A model generated the notes under the pieces. The model made no database searches. It saw nothing but the letters and a program-made list of their open reading frames with translations, and was not told the origin of the DNA. From Vermamoeba vermiformis (taxonomy: Eukaryota), in the NCBI GenBank assembly GCA_045837725.1, contig JBEWZL010000184.1:434001-498000 (forward strand): a stretch of DNA of 64,000 nt, given 5' to 3'. The translations under genes and the position numbers were made by a program. Positions 2,220-58,500 of this stretch are shown piece after piece. How positions within the stretch are numbered: position 1 is the first letter of the stretch; each line of letters begins with the position of its first letter.

Positions 2220-3038
2220 TTAGTGCTTAGAGTAATAGTAGATCTCGCCAACGACTTCGCGAGTCCATTTGGCTTTGTTCAAAGCGTCATGAAGCCTTGT
2301 ATAAGCAGTGCGTTTTGGTGATTTACCTTTGCTTGGATGACCTGCAAGACTGATCTTGATCTGACCGGCGAATACTTTCTCGGCAATTTCATTCGCAATA
2401 GCTTTTGGAAGGATATATCGGCCAGTAGGATCTCGTTGCTTGTCAAGCACCACCTTGAAGGATTGTTCGACGGTAACACGATCAGTGTTCTTCTTTTTGA
2501 TGACTTTTGGCTGGACGTGAGCAGATTCGGGCTTGACTTTCGGAGCGCGAAGTGGCTTCTTGACAGGAGCAGGTGCCATATAGTCGTTTTTTGAGCTAAA
2601 GAATGTGTCCAAGATCACGCAGCCTCCAGAAAGTCCAGGGGTTGGCTCGATCGGCTGCGATGTAGGAACTGAAGAATTCTCGTTCTCAAATCCAAAGGCT
2701 TCGAATGTGTTTTGAACTGGCCCGGTGGGATTATCTTCATTCAGACTAGTACATTCTTCGGTAGGCATCGAAGGAGGTGTTGTTGGGTCAAAGCCAAAAT
2801 CGAAAAGGACATCTGGCGCATCCGTAGGTGGCGCGACTTGTTCAGCCATTTGATACTCTAGTGGCACACCATCAATCTCATCGAGTGTTTGTCGTATATC
2901 GTCGACTGCGCCATCGAAAGGCCATAGTGGTTCAAGGGCAGGTAAATCCACTCCAAATTGACGGCAAGCATTTTCTTTTTGAGCCATTTTGGTAGTGAAA
3001 TAAGGAGTACTATTTAGATAATTCATAAAGTACGACAT
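2220..3038 (-). CDS. Intronless protein: acidic/Pro-rich N-terminus, Lys-rich linker, C-terminal winged-helix (HARE-HTH-like) domain
   Basis: 272-aa ORF; the start may be the Met of MAQK at 2987. The C-terminal TVEQSFKVVL...EIAEKV...GKSPKRTAYTRLH resembles the HARE-HTH GKTP..T..A.L pattern. Confidence 0.65.
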   Translation of the reverse strand: MSYFMNYLNSTPYFTTKMAQKENACRQFGVDLPALEPLWPFDGAVDDIRQTLDEIDGVPLEYQMAEQVAPPTDAPDVLFDFGFDPTTPPSMPTEECTSLNEDNPTGPVQNTFEAFGFENENSSVPTSQPIEPTPGLSGGCVILDTFFSSKNDYMAPAPVKKPLRAPKVKPESAHVQPKVIKKKNTDRVTVEQSFKVVLDKQRDPTGRYILPKAIANEIAEKVFAGQIKISLAGHPSKGKSPKRTAYTRLHDALNKAKWTREVVGEIYYYSKH

Positions 3039-3756
3039 TGTTCTAAAATAATTCGTTTTAGTTTTAAATCCGCTTGAAAACTTTTTATTTTGCTCACCCT
3101 AGCTAAAGCTTTGGCCTTTTGCTCTAATGTTGCTCGGTTTTTTTTTGAATTACCGTCGACTGCCATTTTTTCCTTTATATTTGTATCGTTTGTTGTTTGG
3201 TTGTTTGTTATGCGTGTCCTGAATCCAACAAATCAAACAAAAAGCGCGAAGAAAAGTGTGAACTGCTGAATCACAAAAACAAACCAAACAAATCAACAAA
3301 CAATCGCCTTTAGACCATTATTATGCCTATAATCGCGTATTGAGCTAATAACGCTCCTGCTTGACATGCAGCGATAGTTGTACGAATCCGGCATGTCAAT
3401 TCGAAGGACCTTTAAAATATCTTCAAAAAGGTATGGTATGATATGTATAATGTATTGCTAAGCCAAAGAATTGGCTTCATGTTATGAAGCGCAATTCAAT
3501 TTTAAAATTTTTCGGATTCCGGTGTAAACAGGTAATTTACGGGTTTACTAGCATTTATGCTAAGAATGAGATAGATGACATTAATTTCTGCATTAATAAA
3601 CCACTAAAGAATTGATTTTTCGGTAAGAAAATTCAAAAATATTCGTCTCGTTCTGCATCTGACGCTTAGTCTCAAAATATCTTACAGTTTAATGACAATA
3701 AATAACGATAATGTTATATGACTACAATTAAATAATGGTCTTACTTGGTCGTATTA

Positions 3757-6700
3757 TTATTGCTTCTTGCTTTGAACCATCGCTTTCTCGTACTCGCGCA
3801 TGAACATGTCTTTCATCTCTTTGCCAATAAATTCAAATTTAATGACGTCTCCGCGGTCTGCAAGTAGTGTAGCAGACAATTCTATAATTAAAGAATTACT
3901 AACTGCGAAAAAATGTTGCAGATCTGGTTCGCATCCGGATCTTCCATTAACGATGGAGCCATTAAGAATTGTTCAAAAGATATAGATATTATATATATGA
4001 TAGTGCTTACCACCCTCGACAGTTAACGTATGGAAGTTCTTCAGTAAGATGAGCTGTTGGACTTTCTGCTTCATCTCTTTCTTGTACTTGACAGTCTTCG
4101 AGTACATCAGCGCATCGTTCAATAGATACAATTTGCCGGGCACGTGCTTGCTCAACATAACGTCGTAGAACTGAATATCAGCATCTGCGATCAATGTTCG
4201 ATGCGGCAAGAAGATTTTCTGAAAGAAAAAAGGTTAGATCCAGATGTGTTTTTTTTAAGCCAAGTAAAATATATTACGTCAACTTCGCCAACAATATCGT
4301 TTGCAGCTTCAATCAACTTCGTCCTGTCTTCAAATTCTCGACGTCGATCGTTCAAGTAAGCGTTGATCTGAGCGACCTTTGCAAGGGCATTCTTCAAGTT
4401 ATCATAGTCGGGATGATCCGCGCTCGTGTTGTCCATCAATTGCTACATAATGGCGTTAGTTGCGTGCTCTGTGAAAGAATTGTAACGAAATTTCACGTGA
4501 CACTTTGACACGTGTCATTAAAAAAAATCTGTCGGACGTACCTGCAGCAACAGTTGGTATCGAGGAACACGTTGAACAGGCTAGGAATTAAATAATACGT
4601 CAGTAATTGAATTATTTTAAATGAATGAAACTGACTTACCATAATCAGATAACTTTCAAGATCCAAACCGCAAATAATTGGATCTGTTGTTGTAACTTTC
4701 TGTGCACAAAAAAAATGTTAAAATCTCGAATGGAATTTGCTATATTACGTACTTCTAAGAACTTGGCCAATCTCGGGTTTTCAGTACGACACTTCAACAA
4801 CGCAATTTGAGAGTTTCTGTAGTTGTTGATGTACTCCGTGTATGTCTTCAAAAACTCGCCCTATTATTTCCTTATTAGTAAAATATCTTGACACGTGTGA
4901 AAAATATAAGTGACACGTGTCACTACGGACTAAAACTTACCATAAACAGGAAGATATCTCCGATACATTGTTTTGACGACCATTTCATTAAGCGACTATT
5001 AAGACCTTCCAAAAGCATCGAATTGTAACTCCAAATAATTTCGACGGATCCAAAAATGACTCGGATGTCGTTCTCTGGTACGAGCGGTTTGGAACTTTTC
5101 AGCGAGTTCAGTAACGGGTTTTGGAATTTCTATAATATCGATAAGATTGATAATGCTTGATATTATTAGGAGCTCTTAGTACCTTGACAATAATCGACAA
5201 ATTTTTCACGTAAGTGCCTTCTGTGACGAGCAATTCTTGCGCGATTTTTGTTCGCTTGAAATGTTTCTTCGCTGCACATTGACAACACCGTTAGTACGAC
5301 AGCTATAATACCAAAGTTAATATCATACCTTGCTCCATTTTCTTCTCGTCTAGCTGTGACGTGTCGACTTGTTTGGCCGGTTGTTTCGGTGGGGCAGGAG
5401 TAGCACTTGTGGTACTATTCACCGTGCTGACAGTGCTCGGATTGCTGTTGTTTGTTATGCTATTTACAGTGCTCGGCATTGACACCGTGCTCGGGGTACT
5501 GCTGATCGAACTCATGCTCGTCATCATCGTGTTCATCGAGCTGACGGTGCTTCGAGCGGTAGAAGGAGGACTCATTGTGTTTCTGTTTTCAGGACTGCCA
5601 ACAGAGCTAGAGCTGGTCTGTTGTTGGTGCGAGTTCATCAACATGGTTTGATGCGGGGTTGTAGCACCACTTGGAGGCGGTGGCTTGGAGCCTCTCATCA
5701 TCGCAAACTGTCGGACTCCTGGTGATTGCTTAGGGCTCATCGGGGGCGAGGCCTAAAGACATCAGTTAACAACTACTGTTTAAACCCAAGTCACAAAAAT
5801 GTCACGTGACACGTACTATCGGTGAACTAGGTCCATTTGGAGAACCCGGAGGAGACCACGTAGCGCTCATATCGACCTCTGATAAGTTCTTCTTAGGCGG
5901 GGTCGGCAAGGGCTTTGATTTCAAGTGCGCTGGCTTGGGCATTGGTACCGGCTTGGACTTGATTTCTCGTCGCGGTGAACCTGCTGGACTCGAATTTGCA
6001 GACCGTACAATGTTAGCACGAGGAATAGACAAACCTACAATTATCCAGTTAGAGATCTGACACTTTTGACACGTACCATCAGATCCTGTTTGTTGCTTAC
6101 TCTGCGACCTTCCTTTGTTCTTGAATGATTTGCTCGTTCTGTCACGAATGAGGGACACTCGCTGTTTGCGCAACTCATCCACTGATTTCGTGCATTCCCC
6201 TGACTGTTTGCACGCCTCACACCTTCACATAGACGGGTCATTCATTTGGACTTATGTCTCATATCGAAGCTTACCATTGCTCGAAATAATCCCATAGTAC
6301 TGTGGCACAAGGATTCTTCGGCTTTTCAGTAATGATCTCGTCAGACGGTTTGATCGAAATTTCAGACTTCGATTTGAACATCTTTGATTTGATACGTCTA
6401 CGGAAGTGTTAGTTATATACTCAATGAATACTACAATTGAAGTAACATACTTGATAAATTCTCCGAATTTGCTACTTTTGCGCTTGTTATTTGCAATGTG
6501 GTCTTCGCCCAACGTGTACTGCTCGCGTTTCAAACCGATGTTCTCTTCTTGCAGCTCTTCTTCTTCCATTTCAGCGTAATACTGATTGGCTACTTCAATA
6601 TCTTTGGGTTTAATAGGCGCTGTTAATGAATCCAACGAATTCCTTCGGTGGAAATACTGCGGTGGATTTCGTGCTGGTACTTGTGGTGGAGGTGATTTAG

Positions 6701-23632: not shown

Positions 23633-26360
23633 TTATACCTTGTCGCTGGTAACACTAGCTTGATTTTGACTGTTAATCGAGTTTCCAGAGTTACCACTTT
23701 TGCTCGCTTTAGCGGATGTCTTGTGCGAGTCAGAAGTGCCCCTAATCTTTCTCTCATTAGCCTTAAGCTCGGCTAATCTCTCACGCAACGATTGTTCTCG
23801 TCGTGCGAGCAACTCGAGCTGATCTTCGACTTCTTCATAAGTTTCAGGCAGATTCGTGGAGCCCTGAGGAGTGCTACTCGCGCCCCATGAGGAACTGTTC
23901 TTTCTTCGTGTAGGGTCGTTGGATCCGGTCGCGACGTAGTAGATCTTCGGAATTAATAAGATGGCCAATGTAGCAGTAACGCCCCAAAGAATAGCAATGG
24001 AGCGGATGAGGAAGTCGATGTATCTATCGCCGATTTGAATAGCAAATAATACGAGCAAAATTAATGTTGCAAATGTAATATTATACATTGCAATCAAAAT
24101 GAATTTTGACTCGTTGTACTCGCTGCGGATCTTGCGGGACCAGAAACCAAGAACAACGCCACCAATGATAAGAGCAGCCTTGTATATGATGAGAACAACA
24201 GCAAAAGGCATCGTATTGCTGCTAACACAAGTTCTGTAGTTGTTGATCGGCCTGAATTCATCGACGACAATAGTTTCTACGTGGGGCGTAAAAGCAGCAG
24301 ACCAGACGACCAAAATGATGATCTCAATAGCCAAGGCAACAGCCATAATACGAAGCAAGTAGTAGTTGGTGAGCTTGATCATTTTCAGACTATGTTCATG
24401 GAAGATGCGCCAAACTCGCCAAGTCTTCGTGAGCAGAGCGCTGAACATGAGCACAAATCCAACGCCAGAGAGCCAATATCGCAAGTTGCACATAGTCGTA
24501 GTCGTTTCCAAGACCCAAAAGAAAAGTGAAGCGTAGATCATGATCGCACCAACGATGATTAATTCGACGAAAAGCAGCGATGAAGCGATGATTTGAGGTC
24601 TGTCGCGCCACACAGCGAAGAGGATCATGAGCACAATGCAGCATAAAATACCAACGCCAGCGACCACAACAATGCCGAGTTCAGCTTGAGATCCGTACCA
24701 AGAAACAACTTCTTGGCGCTCTTCAAATGTCGGCATCGGGTAGATCATGTCGTTAGCAGCGGCGGCAATAGGCAATATAATCATATCTTGCGTATCTTTG
24801 TTGACTTGGAGCGTTGCACCAGTTCCGGTTTCCACGATCTGACCAAAAGTGTTGAACTGCAGCTGGCCGTAGAACGTAATAGTGTTGAGGGTGTTCATCA
24901 TAGCGCGCATATCTTCGGTATCAAGCGAGTTGGAGAATTCAGCGGCACCTTGAACGGCTAATCCGCAAGCGAACTGAAAAGCAGCATGATAACCTACATA
25001 ACGTTAGTTAATTTGATACCGTACCATGTCGTATTACTTACTTGGGGTGTAATTGAATCGTTGGATAAACGTCTCGTAGAAAATCTCCGGGCTTTCCTTA
25101 TCAGCCTAATTAGGACAAAACGTAACGTTAGATTGTAATAAGATCGGGTAATTAAAATTTGTGTACGGATCTATTTTAAGCGCTGGGAATTCGATCTCGG
25201 AGGCAAAGAGATATACTTACGGTTGATGGGAAGAAATGCAAGGAACTTTTTCCGTCTTCTCTAAAAACACGGCCGCTCAATCGGTGATCCCAAAGTGCGG
25301 TTCCAGAGACGTAGCGTCCAGCGTCTCCAGCGATTTGAAGGAAGGTGTTATCGCTGAGACATTCGGCAAGGAGCATTGCAGGAGCAGTGTAGTTCGTTTC
25401 TTGCATCGCTTTAATGAAGTTGGTGCACTGGAAGATCGAGCCGACGACCAAATCCGGATTAGCTTGTTTCAGTTGTGCTATAACCTTCTTCATATTATCT
25501 GCGGTTACAGTGGCATTGCTAGAATAAGGAACAGGGATATCAGCAACAACTTCTAATTTGTTGTCTTGAGCGCCCGCGATCGCGCCATTGTACGCAGCCT
25601 TGAAGTAGAGATCGTTTAAGCCAGTCATCGTGAATATGCCAATAGTCTTAGCGCCTTTGACACGAGCGAGTGCAATGCCAGGCGGGTACAAGGATTCAGT
25701 ACTTGCTTGAACTCCGACCAAGTACTCAAATCTGCGACCAGATGGGGAAGTACAAGGCTCCAACAGGTCGGAATCACATTCAAAAATCTTTGGAGAGGAT
25801 CCGCCTAATGAAACGGGCATATGCCATTATTAGATAAATCCACACGTGCCACATATTAATTAAACTTAGAGAAATTTGAGCTAAATATCGGTCATCTTTA
25901 CGCATTATTAGGGCAAGCTTTCTATTTCTCTTTTTGATCTGGTATTATTTATCGATATTAATGGTAACTTACCTGAACCACAGCTAAGTAGTTTATATTT
26001 TTCTGCTTGAATCATGTAGGCTTGAGTTAAACCAGATGAAAAAGGAGCAAACATCGCATTCACGACGCCATAAGTACCATTTACGGTTGCTTGAATGGTG
26101 TCGGAGATCTTGATTTCCATTTCAGCTTCGGTGGGAGCGCCAACATCGACCGAAATTACTTCAACCGGATGTCGCGTTCCATTAACCAAGATTCCACCTC
26201 TAGCATTGACCATTTCGCTCCATAATATTTCTCCATCACGCAGTACTTTTACTACTGCCCAAGGGGACGAGATCGGGGCTACTGAAACTACACGGAAGAC
26301 TCCGATCACAGAAAAAACCTGGGAGAATAGCAGCAATACTACGGCTATTTTCCTCATCAT
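23633..26360 (-). CDS. Class C (GABA-B/Grl-like) GPCR with periplasmic-binding-protein ectodomain
   Basis: Signal peptide MMRKIAVVLLLFSQ. 7TM domain with IASSLLF, CNLRYW, LLTKTWRVWRIF and SEYNESKFI..AMYN. C-terminal coiled coil. Ectodomain VNARGGILVNG. Confidence 0.9.
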
Positions 26361-27804: not shown

Positions 27805-29682
27805 TTAATGAATTTGATCTATTTGCTGGTATTCCTTCTTGCGTCTATTAACAACGAAGATAATCATTCCTATTATAGCCGCCACGGGTACGACACTAAC
27901 TAGAGCGCCTGCTATAATCATTTCCATCGGTAACCCGCTGGATGTTGATCCGTTTTCAGGAGACGAGGCGGGAGTCGTCTCAGGAGTTCCCTGGACAGGT
28001 TCTAATTGTAGAGGAGGTTCAATATGCTGAGGTGGCGCTATATGAACGCTGCAATCGACTGACCCAAAGCCAGGATTGCAATCGCAAGTGCCCATCTGTT
28101 CGCCGTCGGTATTGCAAACTCCTTGCTCACTGCAATTATTGGCGCATATCGCTACATACATATTATTAACGAAAATACTACTATTAGCGCTTATAATCAA
28201 CTTACATCCATGCCAGAGAGCGAAATCATAATTTTCAGTTACGTTGTTAGGTGCTCGTACGCCAATATACCAGTAGCCAGAGTAGCGCACGTTGATATCA
28301 ATCTGATTGACAGCACAATACTGCGTTGAGCATCCAACAAAGTCGTGCTGCTGTTCGTCAGGAATATTTGACCAGCGGACGTACACGAGCGGATTTGGAT
28401 TGCTTGGGTTGACAGCAGCCACCGAGAAGGCCAAACGAGACGACTTATCATTGCTGCTAGTCACTTTGATTCTATAATAAGTCATTGAGGAGCTTGCTGT
28501 GCCAGTAGCATTTGAGTTGTGGATGTGTTTAGTTCTGTGACTGGATTCGAACACGTTGGGCCAGCAAAGGACGCGTTGCAAACTAATAACCCAAAATATA
28601 AATATTAAAATATAAAAATAAATGTAACGTACCTTCAATCGCGGACTGCAGAATGAAAAGTGTCTGATCTGTTTTTTGTAAAAGTTTTGCACTCAATAAA
28701 TAGAGACCAACTCCAGGATTGGTCATAGTCAGTTGACCATTTACTGAATTTCCATCGTTGAGATAGGTCTCATTGGCCTGCAAGAATGGATTGCCTTCCA
28801 GTCGACAACGTAGTTGTACGTTTGGATCTGTTGTCCACGTTATAGCGCTTGCAGTAACAGCCAGTGCCGTGGAGAACATATCGACTCCATTACCAAACCC
28901 TAAGGTATAGGTCTCGTTACTGGGAGTGGAAATTATCACTGGAGCCACATCACAATTTTGTCCTAAGGAAATTTGAAGGCACGCCACAGCAACCGCATTG
29001 AAAGTCAGCCGCACGGAGTTATTTAGGGGAAGAGGATTAATAAAAGAAGCTCCTAACGCATAAGCAGTTGAGCGTAAAATCCAGGAAAGAGATGGCATTG
29101 ATTTTCCTGGAACTCCTGGCCGTATTTCGTGATACTCTGAGCAAGTATCTGCACTCCAGCGAGACGGGTGAGCAAACTATGCAATATGACAAGTTAGTTC
29201 GAGAACCAAAATATTAGACCTGACGTACTCCTTGCTGAGATAAGCAGATCCTCAAGCCATACGCGAACACTTCGGTATTATTCGGTATAAATAAAGTTAC
29301 TGGCGAGACCAAGCTGGGTATAACAAAGTCGCTGTTGCATTGCCATTCAGAGTTGGAGACAGTCGCGGTGCAGTTTGCATTCCAAGGAACTAGAATAAAT
29401 TTTTTGTTAGATATTTTATATGAATATCGCGTGTAATAAGTCGTGGTTTATATCAAATAAATACAAGATAAAATAAATATAAAATTGTATTTTAATATCT
29501 CTTGCAGAATCTCGACCACAAATATTGTCGTGATTCATTACACGTTAACTATTTATTTCTGGTTTTATTTGAAAATATTAAGTAATTCTAGCGTGTTGGA
29601 TCATGATTATTTATTTAATTCTACCTGGTTGCGCAGTGGAAAACACGAATAAAAGTAATATTGCAAGAACTTGTTCTTTCAT
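27805..29682 (-). CDS. EGF-like domain type I membrane protein
   Basis: Signal peptide MKEQVLAILLLFVFSTA. Beta-sandwich ectodomain (YWYIGV). EGF CANNCSEQGVC...CDCNPGFGSVDCS. TM followed by RRKKEYQQI. Confidence 0.8.
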
Positions 29683-36560: not shown

Positions 36561-37202
36561 ATGTCAGAAGCACCACCGCAACAACGCACAACTCAACGAT
36601 CACTGCCTCCGTTTGAGCACATTAACTACAGCGGCGGAGGAGTGCTGCTCTATGCGTATCAAGAGCAAAAAGACGGAAGTAAAAGAGCTTATTTATTGCT
36701 TGGCCAAGAGCGCGAATTAAGCTATGATGACTTCGGAGGCAGCAGAGGAAAAGGAGAGCGACATCCGATCTTAACTGCGGCAAGAGAATTTTTTGAGGAA
36801 TCGATTGGAGCGATTTATAATTTAGAAGAAATTACAGAGAAAATATTGGCAAGTAAAGCCTTTATTTTCGAAGCCAACTTTTATCAATACTGGGTCGAGA
36901 TCCCTTTTGATGATCGCATTCTCGATAATTTCGCCAAAGTCAGAAAGGAAAAAGAGCCAACTGCTACCAGATACGAGTTAGAAAAGCAACAGCTGAGGTG
37001 GTTTGCCGTAGAAAATATTCGAAAATCTGTTCAAGAATTCATTAAAAGGATACCCGATCCGAACGAAGACGGCAAAAAATCAGATCCATTTAGAAAACCG
37101 TTGTTCTGTGAAGAATACGTAATGAGAAAGCACTTGATCAAAACTATGTCGAAAGCCGAACAAACAGGCGTGTTAGAGAAGCTCGAAAAGGGACTTTTGT
37201 AA
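36561..37202 (+). CDS. Nudix hydrolase (intronless)
   Basis: 213-aa ORF with a Nudix-box-like motif FGGSRGKGERHPILTAAREFFEESIG, plus GGGVLLY..LLLGQER and EKQQLRWF. Confidence 0.85.
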   Translation: MSEAPPQQRTTQRSLPPFEHINYSGGGVLLYAYQEQKDGSKRAYLLLGQERELSYDDFGGSRGKGERHPILTAAREFFEESIGAIYNLEEITEKILASKAFIFEANFYQYWVEIPFDDRILDNFAKVRKEKEPTATRYELEKQQLRWFAVENIRKSVQEFIKRIPDPNEDGKKSDPFRKPLFCEEYVMRKHLIKTMSKAEQTGVLEKLEKGLL

Positions 37203-38728: not shown

Positions 38729-41806
<3,078 letters not shown>

Positions 41807-42514: not shown

Positions 42515-42587
42515 GCCCGCTTAGCTCAGTCGGTAGAGCGCACGGCTCTTAACCGTGTGGTCGTGGGTTCGAGCCCCACAGCGGGCG
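42515..42587 (+). tRNA. tRNA-Lys-CTT: tRNA-Lys (anticodon CTT)
   Basis: 73-nt cloverleaf: acceptor GCCCGCT/AGCGGGC, anticodon arm CACGG-CT-CTT-AA-CCGTG, T loop TTCGAGC, downstream T-tract. Confidence 0.97.
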
Positions 42588-42861: not shown

Positions 42862-42934
42862 GCCCGCTTAGCTCAGTCGGTAGAGCGCTAGGCTTTTAAC
42901 CTAGTGGTCGGGGGTTCGAGCCCCCCAGCGGGCG
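42862..42934 (+). tRNA. tRNA-Lys-TTT: tRNA-Lys (anticodon TTT)
   Basis: 73-nt cloverleaf with the same acceptor and D arm; anticodon arm CTAGG-CT-TTT-AA-CCTAG; T-tract terminator. Confidence 0.97.
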
Positions 42935-43009
42935 CATTCTTTTTGCCTTGCTGGCAAACTGACGCTACCCGCGTCCGCTCTACAACCCGCACCATCCCTT
43001 CAAATCAGT

Positions 43010-43678: not shown

Positions 43679-44401
43679 ATGAAGTACCAATTATTTTTGC
43701 TAGGTGCATTTATTGTCTTTGTTAGCGCCCAATACAACTGCAAAGCTTCAACGGATGGCCTTTTGACTTCGGCACTCACGAACCCCAAGACTGGTCCTTT
43801 GGATGGCGTCACTGCTATCGGTCCCGACGTTCAATTCACTATTCAAACTACTTCCAATTTCATCGTTAGAATGAACTTGTATGGCGATCACTCCATCGTC
43901 TCCAGCGACCAGCGCAACTTTGGAACAAACGGCGTTATGTCTGGCGCCACCTCCGCACTTGATTGGTCTAGAGCTGAACTCGACAGCGGTCTCACGGCCC
44001 TTTCATTCTCGCCTCCCGTCGCATCCATTGTTGTAAAAATGAACTACGACCCTGCATGGCTCAACATTAGCTCCCCTACTATTATCGTCTATAGCGAGAA
44101 CAACACTCGTGTGGCTTGCTACGATATTGAAGCTTTGGCCCCGATCCGAACAAGCGGATCGAACGGATTTGCCTACCGCGGAGTTACCCTTAACTCAAAC
44201 ACTATTGGCTCCGTTCAACTCAGCGGTGCTTCAATGGCCTATTGGGACATTACCTTCGACACTGTTTCGCCGCCCGTCCGCCAGGTTAGTGGCGATTCTC
44301 CATTCTCTGGACCTGGATCAAACCCCGGAACTAGCGATGCTAGAGGCCTTATCGCATCAATCAGTTTGCCATTGTTATTATCATTCTTGTATTTATTCTA
44401 A
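43679..44401 (+). CDS. Secreted, probably GPI-anchored beta-rich surface protein (intronless)
   Basis: Signal peptide MKYQLFLLGAFIVFVSA, Ser/Pro/Gly linker, and hydrophobic C-terminus (LIASISLPLLLSFLYLF*) with no cytosolic tail. Confidence 0.85.
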   Translation: MKYQLFLLGAFIVFVSAQYNCKASTDGLLTSALTNPKTGPLDGVTAIGPDVQFTIQTTSNFIVRMNLYGDHSIVSSDQRNFGTNGVMSGATSALDWSRAELDSGLTALSFSPPVASIVVKMNYDPAWLNISSPTIIVYSENNTRVACYDIEALAPIRTSGSNGFAYRGVTLNSNTIGSVQLSGASMAYWDITFDTVSPPVRQVSGDSPFSGPGSNPGTSDARGLIASISLPLLLSFLYLF

Positions 44402-44678
44402 ATCGATCGATTAAAGCCATAAAGAAAGTTAAATTCGATCAAAATTGCGAAGCACGTGCCTTTCAATATTACCAAAATAGCTTCGGAGCAACCTCTCTGT
44501 TTTCCGGTCGAAACATCCGATCATGGTATCGTTGTATTGTATAATAAGGTTGAATATGAGTAAACGAGGATGACACGTGTCTGTTTTGCCCTGCGAAAAA
44601 ATTATTTTTATTTTCCTCCTCTTCTCACAACAGAGGAGCAATGCTAAATATTGTTCGTTGTAGTATTTAAAATTAGAA

Positions 44679-46306
44679 ATGAACGCAGAGCAGAGCATAT
44701 ACGTTCCAAAAGACATTTGGCGAGAGATCTTGAGAAATCTTTACGATTACCGTAGTTGTTTAGCGGTTAATTTAACGTCCAAAAGTTTCAGAAAAATAAT
44801 TAACGACCGCTTCAAGATTGCTGAGCATTATAAAGGTCAGAGAACTAAGATTAGAAATACTTATTTTCTTATTTTATTAACTACCACCCCAATCATTTAT
44901 TTTTCACAAAGAGATTGTAGCCTATGTGTCAGTCAATTATTCGAGAATATTGTTAACATTAAATTAAGTCAGATCTTATGTGCGTTGTAATGGGACCTGA
45001 AAAAAGCGGGAAAATGACGTTGCTAGCAAAACTAGGACTTCTGTTAGGCTTATTTGGTATGTATTTATATATTGATGTAATTATATTAATCTGTTAATAA
45101 TGTAAAACGATTCAGAACAAGACTCGGAAGATGAATCGCTCTTGGATTCGCTTTGGAACTACTGGAAGGATCAGCCAGACCCTGTATATACAAAATGCGA
45201 GTTTCTTTCGTTCGATAGTATTGGAAGAAATGCCATTATACACTACGTTCGTCAACCTGAGTTTGTTTATATGAAAACAACTCGCGTAAGCTTAGAAACC
45301 GATTGCTTCAATGAAACAACGCGTCAACATACTAATACACTAATATTTGCAGCTTGAAGTCGTTATTTTTGCAATCAGCTATCAACAAGCAATCGAGGAT
45401 CTCGAACAATCCTTTCTCAAGTCAGTCCTAAACTCACTTCGGTTGCGCGCACTGTCGAAGGTACTAGTCGTTATATCACACACAGGTGATACCACTGCAA
45501 TGCAAAACAGTTTCGCGGATATTCGTAGAAAGTATACGGAAGTATACGAACAATACAAACAACACTGGCATCAGTTACAAATGGAAATTGTTCCCGTCGA
45601 TTCAGTCACGGGTTGGAACATACTGCCGCATGCTTCGGACTCATACAAAGGTTTATCATTCTGGGAAACATTGCGGAGATTTCATGCAGATGGATGTCCG
45701 ATCAATGGTCCGTGGCGAGTTTGCTCCGTCGACGTTCGGACTGCAAGTACAATTCAAGCTTATGTGCTCGCAGGAGAACTGAGGGCCGGAGATCTACTGA
45801 TAAACTCCGAGATCGCGCGCGAGATTGAAGAAATCTCGATCGATGGAACAATCGTCGAAAGTGCCTGGGCACAACGATCGCCAATCACGTTGAAGTTGAA
45901 AGGATCGTCAAGCGAGCAAACAATGGACACCACGTCAAAGCCAATTTCAAAGCGTTATATATATGGACCAGGCGTTAAATATGCAACGCGACTAGTGGCT
46001 CGCATTGTATTTTTTGCCTTGACAAAGTTGCCGCTGAAAGAAGTCAAATTACGATCATTAATTGGAGCAGTGGACATTATCAGTTTTAAAGTGCTCAGTT
46101 ATCTCGATCCAATTACCTATGAACCAGTTCCAACTAGCATTGATGACTTTATTCCTCAAAATGAAATTGTCTTGGCCGAGATCGAGATCAGCACCCCGAT
46201 CTGTATAGAATCCGAATCGTCGTATCCTGACCTGGCAATGGTACATCTCACAATAGGATCTTCGTTAGAAAATGGTGCTTTATTGGCTGTGGGCATGATG
46301 ATTTGA
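44679..46306 (+). CDS. F-box fused to degenerate eEF1A/eRF3/Hbs1-like translational GTPase fold (copy 1)
   Basis: Exons 44679-44835, 44973-45056, 45116-45285, 45353-46306. F-box VPKDIWREILRNL...LTSKSFRK. P-loop GPEKSGKM. IVPVDSVTGWNI; PICIESESSYPDLA...LLAVGMMI. Confidence 0.8.
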
Positions 46307-46548
46307 GCTGGTAGAACCAAATAAGCAGGAGTTGTAGATTGTACACTGTTCCGATATTAAGTTATTACGGCACATTGTTCGTGTAAATGGCACCGATTAT
46401 AGACTTAATATACTCAATGAATTTGTCAGATCCTCTGATGACATATCGCCAAGCAGTTGACACGTGTCAAAACTATTTTTGCTTTGTAGTTTGATCGAAG
46501 ATTATTTTAACTTCAGTTCGGTAGCACATACATGTAAACCAAACATAG

Positions 46549-48313
46549 ATGGAGCAGCTTAATATTTATATTCCTGACGATGTTTGGCGAGAGATCCTGA
46601 CCAAGCTTATCGATTACAGAACCTGCTTATCGGCTTATTTAACGTGCAAAAAATTTAGAAAATTAATACAACCACACTTGCAAGCCATTGAACGGAATAA
46701 AGGTAAAAATCAAAAAAAGCGAATTTAATTCTTTTGATTTGAATTTTATTTAATAATGAATGTTAATTATTAACAGTCTAATACGATTAAATTTGTGCAT
46801 ATGATAATATCGTTATAATTGTAATTGATCTATCAATTTTATTAACGAGTTTTACAGATCTGATCTGTACGATGGCTGGACCCGAAAAAAGCGGCAAAAC
46901 GACATTACTAGCAAAATTATGTATTTTACGCGGGTTGTTTTGTAAGTAAATACGAATTCTAATTTTTGACCTTATTGAATTAATGATTCAATTTAGCCCA
47001 AAATCCTGGCGATTCTGTGACAGACTCGTTACCCGACTTCGCAAAAACTCAGAAAATGCGGCACTCATACGTAAAGTGTTTATTTCAATTAGAAGATACC
47101 GCGAGAAGGAAATTGTCCGTTTATGACTTTAAACGAAGTGCGCACGGTTTTACTCTCCGAAAGAATCACGTAAGCTCCGTTGTTATCTAAATTTTTCTTC
47201 GAATTTAGCGACTATTTTGCATTTGCAATTAACACTTGAAATTAGGTGATGAACAGCGTACTGTAAAAATTAAAAGTTAAAGCCGCCGTTAATTTTTGGA
47301 AATTTCAGATTGATCTTGCCATATTTGTCGTTAGTTTCGAACAGTCGTTGAAAGACAGCATTCGCAGATTGAGCTCAATGCTGAATATGATGCGAGTGAA
47401 CCAATGGTCGCAAATTTTACTCGTCATCTCGCACATGGACAGCACAAAAGTTCAACAAGACGATTACAAGAACATTTGCAGAAAGTATATGGAGGTATAT
47501 GAAGAGTACAAACAGCACTGGCCTCAACTGCAAATGAAGATTGTGCCAGTGGATTCAATTACGAATTGGAACATTATGCCACGTGACGTCAATTCAATGA
47601 ATGACAGTAATAATAACAATAGGAGCATATTAGAGAATTATGAAGGTCTTTCATTCTGGGAAACATTGCAGAGATTTCATGCGGATGGTTACCAGATCCA
47701 CTGTCCATACCGAATTTTCTCAGTTGAAAGTCCACTTCATTACGCATATCAAGCCTATCTGATGGCCGGAATATTGAAGGTCGGGGACCTCCTAGTAAAC
47801 TCCGAGATCAAACTCGAGATCACAAATATCTCCGTCGATAGAACGTCCGTCAAAGTTGCCTACGCGCAAGCCGAACCACTCACTTTAAGATTGAAAGGAG
47901 CGGCTAAAGGACGATCTAAATGGCCTCGAATATATGGCCCAGGCTTACGACAGACCTCTTCCTTCGTTGCGCGAATGATTTTTTTGCGATCCGTCGAACT
48001 TCCGCTGCCAGAAAACATGCGTTTCGAATCTACATCCGGACACAGGCAAATAACCAACTTGACAGTGATAAAAAGTCTTAATGCGATCACTTACGAGCCT
48101 ATTGAGAGGGTCTACAACAAGAAACTAGAAGGCCATATCTTCTCTAATGAAATTGTGTTGGTCGAAGTTTCGTTGTTTGATCCGATCTGCATTGACCAAG
48201 AATCAACGTACCCTGACTTTGCAAGGTTCTATGTCACTGGCAAGAGTATTTCGCCGTATGGCAGTATAGCCGCGTTGGGCGTAGTCATCAGTGCTGATTG
48301 GAATAAACTGTGA
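46549..48313 (+). CDS. F-box fused to degenerate eEF1A/eRF3/Hbs1-like translational GTPase fold (copy 2)
   Basis: Exons 46549-46702, 46858-46941, 46997-47169, 47309-48313, with the same intron positions as copy 1. F-box IPDDVWREILTKL...LTCKKFRK. P-loop GPEKSGKTT. LVISHMD; PICIDQESTYPDFARF...IAALGVV. Confidence 0.8.
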
Positions 48314-48423: not shown

Positions 48424-48506
48424 TTGGGTATCTACGGCGGAAGTCGAATCCGCGACCTCGAGAACACAGTCCCCCGCTCTCCCAGCTGAGCTACGTTGAT
48501 ACCCAA
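48424..48506 (-). ncRNA. tRNA-like RNA or pseudo-tRNA (Tyr-like body, 5-nt anticodon loop, extended terminal stem)
   Basis: Minus strand reads TTGGGT-ATCAACG-TAGCTCAGCTGGGAGAGC-G-GGGGA-CTGTG-TTCTC-GAGGTC-GCGGA-TTCGACT-TCCGC-CGTAGAT-ACCCAA, followed by a T6 terminator. Confidence 0.7.
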
Positions 48507-48703
48507 CAGCCTTATAGATAATCGTAGTTTACAGGTTCAAAGCTTTCTCGGTAAATTGAGGGACTAGGTTTCGTAACAAAAATTCGGCCGATGTATTCTT
48601 TTGGTCAATTTTTTGCTATTCTTTTTTTCAATTCTTTGTGAACGAAAAAACTATTTAAAATGAACAGTTCATCATTATCTTCAATCATTTCAATAGAGAC
48701 ACA

Positions 48704-49427
48704 ATGCCCAGTTCTGTTCCCTCAAGCAACTTTGTTTCCGACACTGTGCTCCAAAGAATTGAGCTCACTGGAGTGCAAAACTACCTCGATCTCAAATCGC
48801 GTATGCGTAGTAAAGCAAGCAAGTGCAAGGAGCTACCAGCACTAGAGCAGCTGCAAATTGCTATTCTTCCATCCAGAGACGGAGATCCTCTAGTTGTTTA
48901 TGACGATGCAACTCTCACGGAGCAAGTCCGTAAAATACCCGGCGACAAGGTGTATTGCAGTCTTTATTGCCCTGCGACGCAGAAATTACTTCAAGAGGAG
49001 GTCTTAATAGCCAAAGAACTTCGGAAAGAATTGAGTGACGTGATTCGCTCTCACTCAAAGTCGAATGCGGAGGAAAAGGCCGAAAGTTTCTTTACACGTA
49101 TTAAAAGTAAGTCTTAAATTACCGTTTTTTCAAAAAAAAAACAATTCTTTAACTTTTTTTATGGCAGATGTAATCTCGCGACACCCAAAATTAGCTGCAA
49201 CAATTGGAATCTGCGCTGTGGCAGCTGCTGCATGTTTCTATCCAGTGGCTACGCTGATTGCCGCTGGTGCGGCTGCAATATACGCCTTCAGAAACTATTT
49301 GCAAAGTTTTTTGCTCAAGTTGAAAGACGCGTTAGTAGCTGTTGGCGAGTGGGTTTGGAATCACGTCAAAACTTGGTACGACAAGTTCTCCAATGGCATT
49401 GCAGCTGTAACCCGATGGATTTTCTGA
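48704..49427 (+). CDS. Membrane protein with possible PB1-like N-terminal domain
   Basis: Two exons (intron ~49107-49167). DGDPLVVYDD resembles an OPCA motif. Hydrophobic hairpin ATIGICAVAAAACFYPVATLIAAGAAAI and amphipathic Trp-rich tail. The 5' end is uncertain. Confidence 0.6.
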
Positions 49428-55584: not shown

Positions 55585-58500
55585 TTATTTCTTCTTTTTC
55601 TTCTTGCTTTCTTTGTCTTCTTGCTTCGCCAAATGAGGTCGGAACTTTGGTCGGTTAAATACCGACATTAAATAATACAAGGTCGTTACATCTAGTTGAT
55701 AATTATACAAACTATCTTGATATTTCTTAACGTGCTGTAGCAGTTGATAAATCTTGCGCATTTTGTTGAAATTAACGATTCGATTTGCACGTGACTTAAA
55801 GGTCGGTTCGGTTTCTTCCAGATGCGATAAATACTTTTGATAAAGACCTACAAAAATACATTAGTATACATAATTATTATTAGCTAATGAGGTATATGTT
55901 AATTGTACCTATCCAAGGAACGCATGGTGTTTCGGATGTACTAATGACATTTTGATAGGCTGCGAATACGTCTTTTGGATTGAAAATATCGAGCATCGAA
56001 TTTAATGCTATAATATTATGCGACCCGATTTTCTATAATAGGACATATTAATTATACGGCGATTATTAAATTTTAGTTTGCGAACTTACTTCGTGAATTT
56101 TTGCAATAGTATTCTGAACATCGTTATGATTTAACGCTGATACGATTGAATAGCAACCGTTATAATTATGAAGCTTCAAACATTCCTATATTAGGAAATA
56201 AAGGTTAATTAGCGAGATTTTAATCGAGATTGAAAAAATATTGAACTTACCTGCGCTACTTTAATGAAGTGCTTAATCGTTGCAGCCTTTTCTTTGCTGT
56301 CAGACGCGTCAAATATATCTTTCATGACCCAATCACAAACCTATAAATGGAAAAAAGTTTTTGCGTCAAAAATATTTTGTTAATTTTTGCAGATCTGATC
56401 TGACTTACCTTGTCGGTTCGTTGCACAAGAGAGGTAAATTGTTTTGCAAATAAAACGACTTGTTTTGAGTTCAGCGAAGTGATGGGATTGTTATTCGACA
56501 AAAACTCTTGCATTGTAATGTTGCAGAATAATTGATGGTCCATTAATGTCAACGTTGCAGCTAACGCCGTCGGATCTACCTCCGTAACCCTAAAAATACC
56601 ATTAATCCCGCGATCCACGAGTATTTCTATATAAGGCAATAGTCTTACCGAGAGACCGTTGTCGGGCTGACAGCGTGCGTTGAAAAGTCCGGGAAATTAT
56701 AAACGTTACGAAGGTGTCCCGTAGTCTCCAACTCATGCCATGTCTCAATCGATGTCCAAAAATAGCGGAAAAACTCTTGTTCCTCGACAGTAATGTTGTT
56801 GCTATGATTTTTCACGAACGCGCGCAAAACTTTGATGAAATCTCGCTCTTCGGCCATTTCGTAGAAATAACCCTCTATCCATTTCTTAATGATAGAGCAT
56901 ACTCTAATAATTCATATTAATATTAATTAAAGTGATGTAAGTACTTTAGAATTTTCTTACCGGATGCGCAAGTCAAAAGTTTGCTGTGATAGCTCCATGC
57001 AATTATCTTTCGGATACAACTCGATGATCTCGCTCAACAGTTGTGATGAAGGCAATGCGTATCTATAAGTCAGGAGGAACGCATCGACGTAAGTTGGATC
57101 CGCACCTGAAAAATTTAACATTAGTCTAACTTTAATGCAATAAAATACTATTAAGCGATAAGATATTATAATAATGATAAATTGTATATTATATACTATA
57201 TGAACTTACTTTGGTACTCGTGGTCCAATAACTTGTAAATGAGAACTTTTTTCGGCGCTTCAGCGAGAAATCTCTCCGTCGATTTTTCCGATTTGAGATA
57301 CACAGCGCCACTCTCTTCGGCTAAAATATCTTCCGTCAAGAAGTAGTGCATCACGCCTAAGCGCAGTTGTTGCATATTTTGATGTTCGATCGTCTTCTCT
57401 TGATAACTTTGCATCAATGATTGTCGTTTGAGCTCTTGTTCTTCAACGTCACTATTTTTAACTGTTTCTTGCAGTGCACTTAATGTCTGCTCCAAATTAC
57501 CTAAAAAGGAAAATTCGTTAAAACTAGAAATCTCAATACGGATAGAAATTCATTTGGTTGGTCAGTAAGATTTCCTTATTTGGAAGGTAAACTTACTTAT
57601 GGCGTTTGCAGTTTCAGCCACGTGATTGCTGATCTGAAACATCGATTCGGAGAATAATTTGCTGATTTCAACCAAGTCAAATGAATCATCAGCTTGCGAG
57701 TCAAAACTGGCGTCCAATTTCTTGTCAACTTCTTGCAACAGACTCGCGTAATCATCGTTCGTGAATGACTTGCGGAATAACTCTTCGTATTTGGACTCGA
57801 AGTCTGCCAAGAAATTATCGAATTCTTTTTCCATTGTAATTCGTTCGTCCGACTCCTCCGTACTTTCGTTGTTGCCGAAGTAAATCATCGAGTCGCTTTC
57901 TGAACGCGAAATTTCACCGTGTTCGGTCACCGTCTTGTCAGTCGTTTCGTTCAACTTTTTATCCGCTTCTGATTGGTCCTTCTTCTCATCAGCTCGAACT
58001 TGATCTTCTTGAGGTGCCTTTGCAGGCTCATTTTGCGAGGTCTCGCCATTTGCAGCTGACATTTGAGACTCGTCACGTGGTGTAGTTTCACTGTCGGTCT
58101 TAGTGTTGTCATTGTCAGTCATAGTCAGGTCTCGCTTGATAAGGTCACTTGACAAGGGTCCATCAGTGATCGAGATAGAGTGCCTCGGCTCACTCAATGG
58201 ATACGCGTCACTAGGTCTCGGCGACTTGACGTGCAACTGTTCGTCGTGCAATTTGATCATTTGCTTCAAGAACGAGATGATGTACAAGAACGAGCGCCGT
58301 TGTGTCGGTTGTAACGAATTGTAAAGAATTGATTGGATCAGCGAGTGCGAGAATTGACCGTGATTAACAGCTACAGATATATTGCTATTAGAGGTGCGTT
58401 ATTAAAAAAGTGATGTTTTCGTACCTATTGGAAATCTTAACTTCTCGCAAACTGCGACAGTTGCAAGCGGTGAAGGCAAATTATTGAGCCAAGTTAACAA

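Follow-up and report, generated by a model that had tools for sequence, protein, structure and literature searches.

The analysed stretch of DNA, referred to as the window, comprises 64,000 nucleotides of Vermamoeba vermiformis (contig JBEWZL010000184.1, positions 434,001 to 498,000 of the forward strand), with a G+C content of ~40% and short introns. Two four-exon genes, g1 and g2, occupy positions 44679-48313 on the + strand, and each encodes a protein in which a probable F-box precedes a degenerate body of the Hbs1/eRF3/EF1A type. The interval given in the initial annotation of this DNA runs exactly from the g1 ATG to the g2 stop codon, and its description of two paralogs with identical intron positions is borne out, the introns of both genes interrupting equivalent residues of the alignment with phases 1, 1, and 0. 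The proteins contain 454 (g1) and 471 (g2) amino acids, each followed by a TGA stop, and are identical at 201 of 470 positions (43%, BLASTP E 1e-126). All six introns are bounded by GT..AG, range from 55 to 155 nucleotides with 19-36% GC, and separate exons to which the nucleotide similarity of the two genes is restricted. Among the 108 window open reading frames of at least 90 amino acids g1 and g2 form the sole paralog pair, and their codon usage is native, with r of 0.74 against eight other window open reading frames (control reading frames compared with one another give 0.50-0.66).

In the gene model, exon 1 of g1 (44679-44835) carries the start codon and an F-box-like motif (VPKDIWREILRNL...SKSFRKII). 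Exon 2 (44973-45056) encodes strand β1 and the P-loop, with the G1 element GPEKSGKMT at 44993-45019 aligning to GHVDAGKST of Hbs1-type proteins and having a methionine at the expected Ser/Thr. The switch I/switch II region in exon 3 (45116-45285) is degenerate and shortened, and exon 4 (45353-46306) contains β4, the G4-like SHTGD (45476-45490), the G5-like PVDS, barrels resembling domains II and III, and the stop codon. The arrangement in g2 is the same, with the modeled start codon and F-box-like motif in exon 1 (46549-46702), β1 and an intact P-loop GPEKSGKTT (46878-46904) in exon 2 (46858-46941), and a degenerate switch region in exon 3 (46997-47169). Exon 4 of g2 (47309-48313) contains β4, the G4-like SHMD (47429-47440), a G5-like PVDS with an Asn-rich insert, the domain II-like and III-like barrels, and the TGA stop. 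The motifs quoted in the initial annotation are present as written, including GPEKSGKMT, GPEKSGKTT, SHTGD, SHMD, IVPVDSVTGWNI, GLSFWETL, AGELRAGD, FVARMIFL, and PICIESESSYPDLA, and HMMER places the motif pairings it proposed on the corresponding segments of Hbs1L/eRF3.

Both parts occur in one polypeptide in the homologs P0025 and P0027 (467 amino acids, JGI/IMG); each is a single uninterrupted open reading frame containing F-box, P-loop, and EF body, and at every one of the three exon junctions it agrees with the spliced models of g1 and g2. A contig of a public run joins position 47169 to position 47309, skipping 139 nucleotides bounded by GT..AG, and so confirms the exon 3 donor and exon 4 acceptor of g2 intron 3. 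Unspliced, the product of exon 1 would be only 59 (g2) or 103 (g1) amino acids long. Members of the P0025 90% cluster that are 350 amino acids long and lie on long contigs begin in intron-like sequence ending ...FFCQ before exon 4, and residues 1-145 of P0025 used as a query returned its own cluster only, with no further full-length members.

Comparison of g1 with g2 over 443 codons gives a proportion of synonymous differences (pS) of 0.66, which is near saturation, a proportion of nonsynonymous differences (pN) of 0.35, and a ratio of nonsynonymous to synonymous rates (dN/dS) of ~0.29, showing the genes to be old duplicates under purifying selection. A further sequence, P0002, is identical to g2 exon 4 at 280 of 292 positions (96%) with its reading frame open. 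These data bear on the explanation that the locus holds decaying pseudogenes, or separate genes wrongly joined, for which the one point is that the first two junctions have no RNA evidence from Vermamoeba. Against it stand the four open exons, the canonical and conserved splice sites, the splicing of g2 intron 3, the continuous 467-amino acid homologs, and the dN/dS, for which a value near 1 had been put forward as the sign of decay; this explanation is already largely refuted and has almost no remaining probability.

The F-box-like motif spans residues 8-44 of the 454- and 471-residue proteins, and the P-loop strand starts at about residue 54, so that the motif lies at the N terminus before a large separate domain as in known F-box proteins. 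Pfam F-box-like (PF12937, cut-off 24.3 bits) scores 23.6 bits (E 4.5e-5) in g1 and 24.0 bits (E 3.2e-5) in g2, and Pfam F-box (PF00646, cut-off 20.5 bits) scores 15.0 bits (E 0.024) and 17.8 bits (E 0.0031), respectively. All three family N termini (g1, g2, and P0025) match both models, and the F-box exon is among the better conserved parts of the family with 49-61% identity. The N-terminal domain HBS1_N was not listed by the Pfam scan of the exon 1 products or of P0025. The N-terminal 45 residues probably form an F-box, as judged from these profile matches.

The region from β4 of the G domain to the C terminus is established by sequence comparison as homologous to Hbs1, eRF3, and EF1A. A six-sequence family profile searched against the PDB has HBS1L as its best named match (5lzw chain jj, E 2.8e-12), with eRF3 (E 5.4e-9 and 1.1e-8) and archaeal EF1A (E 1.2e-7) also retrieved and no eukaryotic eEF1A chain at E 0.01; exon 4 of g1 alone finds HBS1L weakly (E 0.0037). 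Aligned by hhalign to 10 Hbs1/eRF3/EF1A-type proteins, the family gives a probability of 99.7 and E 2e-26 over 303 columns extending from β-strand 4 through the end of domain III. The colinearity with eEF1A, eRF3, and Hbs1 described in the initial annotation is therefore clear over this stretch, but the nearest relatives are Hbs1 and eRF3 rather than eEF1A. The full-length family alignment, from which short exon fragments misplaced by MAFFT were left out, is colinear with Hbs1-type proteins from the P-loop to the C terminus over 413 columns.

A three-sequence profile searched against 1.84 billion representative proteins gave 21 matches at E ≤1e-3. Four of these belong to the family, and 16 of the 17 others carry GTP_EFTU, D2, D3, or eEF1A_C, with HBS1_N above its cut-off in three; matches carrying HBS1_N are among the top ones outside the family. 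The 17th, P0017 (195 amino acids), is a distant relative of the g1/g2 family (hhalign probability 97.1, E 7.4e-11) that shares GPGV and SYPELSKFW-type motifs with it and on its own matches archaeal EF1A (E 0.0013); it possibly links the family to the canonical factors, or else represents another family of this kind from a different organism. The low-confidence AlphaFold2 model of g1 exon 4 shows the expected β4-α-β5-α-β6-α order followed by an all-β part. A Foldseek search with this model returned 54 PDB matches at E ≤1e-3, and those listed are EF1A, EF-Tu, eRF3, and Hbs1-type factors or complexes holding them, with EF1A chains at the top.

The putative front half of the G domain, encoded by exons 2 and 3, consists of a P-loop and a stretch of low conservation. 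The P-loop pattern GxxxxGK[ST] is present as GPEKSGKT in g2 and P0025 and absent in g1 (GPEKSGKM). Exons 2 and 3 alone match the Hbs1-type alignment with an hhalign P of 0.0016, a score reached by none of 100 column shuffles, and probably belong to the same G domain as the start of exon 4. The P-loop exon is the most conserved part of the family (57-71% identity) and the switch exon the least (25-36%). In the hhalign register, which is of low confidence in the switch region, the switch I threonine is replaced by Phe, Tyr, and Tyr, and DxxGH becomes DLKKQ, DFKRS, or YVRQP; farther on in the same register, NKxD is replaced by SH[TMV]D (SHTGD in g1) and the G5 SG by DS. The switch I, switch II, and NKxD signatures are thus lost in the aligned sequences. 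The inactivity as a GTPase anticipated in the initial annotation agrees with the loss of the switch I threonine, the DxxG glycine, the catalytic histidine, and NKxD, within the same low confidence of the switch register, and the body is very probably not a working GTPase switch. The members with a GKT-type P-loop may, as a prediction from this motif, still hold a nucleotide.

The family comprises six lineages with 37-58% identity (g1, g2/P0002, P0001, P0003, P0004, and the P0025 cluster); an alignment of six family sequences has 51 invariant columns. In a tree of 20 rows, constructed without labelled eEF1A/eRF3 references and leaving out P0014, P0017, and P0018 (shorter than 290 amino acids), P0002, and near-identical members of the P0025 cluster, the family forms one long-branch clade with support of 100/100 and a stem of 2.02 changes per column. 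The phylogeny suggested in the initial annotation therefore places the family in a single clade but does not resolve its sister group. No relatives were detected in viral, prokaryote-genome, or metagenome contigs by scans with short patterns, a kind of scan whose negative outcome carries little weight.

The initial annotation read the divergence of the neighboring genes as an arms race and proposed an integrated decoy, in which a translation-factor mimic is the bait for proteins of pathogens or viruses that target or exploit EF1A/eRF3-type factors, and an SCF ligase destroys what binds. An architecture in which a ligase adaptor is attached to a copy of a protein often targeted by pathogens is consistent with the logic of a decoy, as is a family that is small, lineage-restricted, and tandem-duplicated. 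Giant viruses of amoebae are described as encoding eEF1A/eRF3/Hbs1-like GTPases that act with eRF1, indicating that viral partners of such a fold exist (PMC6582330). The argument for an arms race is weak: g1 and g2 are old duplicates whose dN/dS gives no sign of diversifying selection at the available resolution, the invariant columns number 51, and divergence is greatest in the former switch region, a pattern that resembles relaxed constraint more than it does an interface under attack. A decoy would also be expected to lie near the protein it guards, whereas this bait has lost the switch regions and is separated from the real factors by its long stem. The eEF1A site modified by the bacterial glucosyltransferases cited in the initial annotation lies in the switch I region, which is non-conserved here, and this argues against a decoy for that modification. 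The pattern scans give no viral or prokaryotic relatives, and no immune genes were seen nearby in a Pfam scan of ten larger window open reading frames. The decoy is accordingly regarded as distinctly unlikely.

Among described systems, the ribosome-rescue GTPase Hbs1/HBS1L, the partner of Pelota/Dom34, is the best named profile match and aligns colinearly with the family, starting at the P-loop and finishing with domain III. The differences are the F-box-like N terminus in place of HBS1_N, the loss of G2, G3, and G4, the shortened switch region, and the separate long-branch clade. eRF3/GSPT1 and the archaeal/eukaryotic EF1A proteins belong to the same three-domain family, whereas g1, g2, and their relatives have no catalytic histidine and no Pfam gathering score. 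Ski7, a yeast Hbs1 paralog, is an Hbs1-like GTP binder with serine at the catalytic histidine position that acts as an adaptor (PMC4509514, PMC6120710). It resembles g1 and g2 in having an Hbs1-derived GTPase-like body, a residue other than histidine at the catalytic position, and, as predicted for g1 and g2, an adaptor rather than enzymatic character. However, Ski7 retains working G motifs and GTP binding and its N terminus bridges the exosome and the Ski complex, whereas g1 and g2 are without the switch motifs and have an F-box-like N terminus of ~52 residues.

The nearest described parallel to the fusion is the F-box joined to the release-factor-like protein VLRF-1 in Naegleria and some ciliates (PMC6514570). 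Here too an F-box is attached to a translation termination/rescue module, although VLRF-1 is described as a peptidyl-tRNA hydrolase of the eRF1 superfamily and not a GTPase. Canonical F-box receptors have the same order of an N-terminal F-box and then a protein-binding domain such as WD40, LRR, or Kelch (PMC4327156); in g1 and g2 the second part is a translation-GTPase fold. The eRF3-like GTPases of Marseilleviridae are likewise divergent eEF1A/eRF3/Hbs1-like proteins of the amoeba-virus world and differ in being active factors without an F-box (PMC6582330). Both parts of g1 and g2 are of known kinds and their pairing is apparently new, in line with the statement of the initial annotation that the architecture had not been described; no description of an F-box paired with an EF-Tu-type body was found in full-text literature searches, although supplementary domain tables (e.g. 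those of PMC4327156) could list one.

The arrangement of the two parts suggests a mode of action. The reading favored here, which is considered moderately probable, is that g1 and g2 are F-box proteins with a degenerate Hbs1/eRF3/EF1A-type GTPase as the putative substrate-binding part and a translation-linked target. The predicted F-box would dock on Skp1 of a cullin-1 (SCF) ligase, and the GTPase-like body, which in the models starts ~8 residues after the F-box, would no longer cycle as a switch and, comparable with Ski7, would serve as a fixed recognition module. The likeliest ligand would be whatever normally recognizes Hbs1/eRF3-type factors, namely a Pelota/eRF1-family protein or the ribosomal factor-binding site, and binding would lead to ubiquitination of this ligand. 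The weakest step of the scheme is the identity of the target. Proteins related in fold to Hbs1/eRF3 associate with the factor site of the ribosome and with Pelota or eRF1. A translation-linked target is tentatively favored because of these binding partners and because Ski7 provides a precedent for an Hbs1 paralog becoming a non-hydrolyzing adaptor.

Several observations weigh against this reading, and the first concern the F-box and its attachment. The scores of g1 and g2 are slightly under the Pfam cut-offs, so that the F-box claimed in the initial annotation is supported by the match of all three N termini but not by a score above threshold. When complete P0025 was scanned with Pfam, F-box was missing from the matches listed at E ≤1, and a three-sequence F-box profile searched against the PDB retrieved no F-box protein. 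The same results would be expected if the N-terminal motif were not a working F-box and the proteins were free-standing, Ski7-like pseudo-GTPase adaptors with a helical N-terminal extension. This is very unlikely given that three of three N termini match F-box-like and F-box models and that the exon is well conserved. In addition, no read or contig from Vermamoeba in the public run data spans the exon 1-exon 2 junction, and the 467-amino acid forms may be either transcript open reading frames or spliced gene models, P0025 possibly being a gene model made by software.

The body raises points of the same kind. No family member alone attains the Pfam gathering score for any EF-Tu domain, the best scores being 20.3 against 27 for eEF1A_C and 15.4 against 26.5 for GTP_EFTU, with D2 not listed. 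The fold comparison succeeds in retrieving the expected chains, but from a model with a mean predicted local distance difference test (pLDDT) value of 49, built from a three-sequence alignment of the family only, and with template modeling (TM) scores of only 0.26-0.49. The three-domain match of the initial annotation stands from β4 to domain III and is less secure in the front half of the G domain, where the hhalign P of exons 2 and 3 rises to 0.069 when the P-loop is removed; as an independent match to Hbs1 these exons are weak, and their assignment rests on the P-loop and colinearity.

The best Pfam match of the P0025 front half is ATPase_2 (PF01637, residues 43-233, E 4.5e-6) and not GTP_EFTU (E 0.12), and the GPxxxGKT form of the P-loop is more usual in ATPases. 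On these grounds exons 2 and 3 might encode a separate ATPase module of STAND or AAA-like type to which EF-Tu domains have been joined. The distance between P-loop and G4 agrees with that in Hbs1-type proteins, as does the succession of elements, and such a module is highly improbable. The ATPase_2 assignment itself was rejected, with 27.1 bits compared with a cut-off of 33.2 and with its C-terminal half overlapping the securely Hbs1-like β4-G4-G5 stretch.

The last point against the favored reading concerns the target. Hbs1 and eRF3 hold Pelota and eRF1 through their switch regions, and it is these regions that have decayed in g1 and g2. An alternative is that the EF-like body is a re-used scaffold that binds substrates unrelated to translation, as WD40 and LRR domains do in other F-box proteins, and the great distance of the family from the canonical factors, seen in the long stem and the sub-threshold Pfam scores, fits this possibility. 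The invariant family motifs FHA[DE]G, YGPG, and ITYE, which are absent from the Hbs1-type rows, suggest that an interface has newly arisen, and a great variety of partner domains is known among F-box proteins (PMC4327156). There is, however, no positive evidence for another substrate, and the degenerate relatives of the fold Ski7 and GTPBP1/2 remain in translation-linked pathways (PMC6120710), so that a scaffold of this type is considered rather unlikely.

The surroundings of the two genes contain further features. A palindrome, GACACGTGTC, lies at 44572-44581, 107 nucleotides before the g1 ATG, and again at 46459-46468, 90 nucleotides before the g2 ATG. The window has 17 sites with at most one mismatch compared with 1.29 expected, a number reached by none of 100 shuffles; exact sites start at 4507, 4912, 7829, 29743, 30482, 31382, 44572, 46459, 50214, and 50332, and seven more have one mismatch. 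The palindrome is probably a widespread promoter element of the genome and not specific to the family, and a literature search on it gave nothing about Vermamoeba. A tRNA-like element at 48429-48500 on the - strand, 116 nucleotides past the g2 stop, scores 42.6 bits with the Rfam tRNA model and has an extended acceptor-like stem, and ARAGORN names no anticodon for it; candidate explanations are a tRNA pseudogene and an element derived from a tRNA. Upstream of g1, two tRNA-Lys genes with CTT and TTT anticodons are placed 275 nucleotides apart on the + strand (42515-42587 and 42862-42935). A family-3 G protein-coupled receptor is encoded at 23636-25003 on the - strand (Pfam 7tm_3, E 7.7e-52) and probably extends to ~26522, the open reading frames upstream of it looking like the ligand-binding part of the receptor. 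Eight of the 10 larger window open reading frames scanned, including both neighbors of g1/g2, have no Pfam match at E ≤1e-3 (43679-44398, 48698-49114, 39898-41556, 36561-37199, 1451-2131, 27808-28692, 2223-3098, and 57565-58398), and the region is rich in orphan genes.

SCF ligases acquire their targets through F-box proteins, and Hbs1/eRF3-type factors allow the cell to sense what state the ribosomal A site is in. A tentative extension of the favored reading, itself rather improbable, is that g1 and g2 represent a novel kind of SCF receptor mimicking a rescue/termination GTPase, which either enters the ribosomal factor site when the A site is empty or stalled or clamps a cellular or viral Pelota/eRF1-type protein, and so brings a cullin ligase to the translation machinery in quality control or antiviral defense. 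If true, this would be a GTPase-independent, ubiquitin-coupled counterpart of Hbs1 and Ski7. A natural fusion of an F-box with an Hbs1-type protein, kept under purifying selection in several paralogs, would be a ready probe for aiming ubiquitination at the translation machinery and, after Ski7, the second case of a translational GTPase turned pure adaptor. If the target is instead unrelated to translation, the family would indicate that the EF-Tu three-domain fold can still serve as the substrate-recognition module of a cullin ligase.

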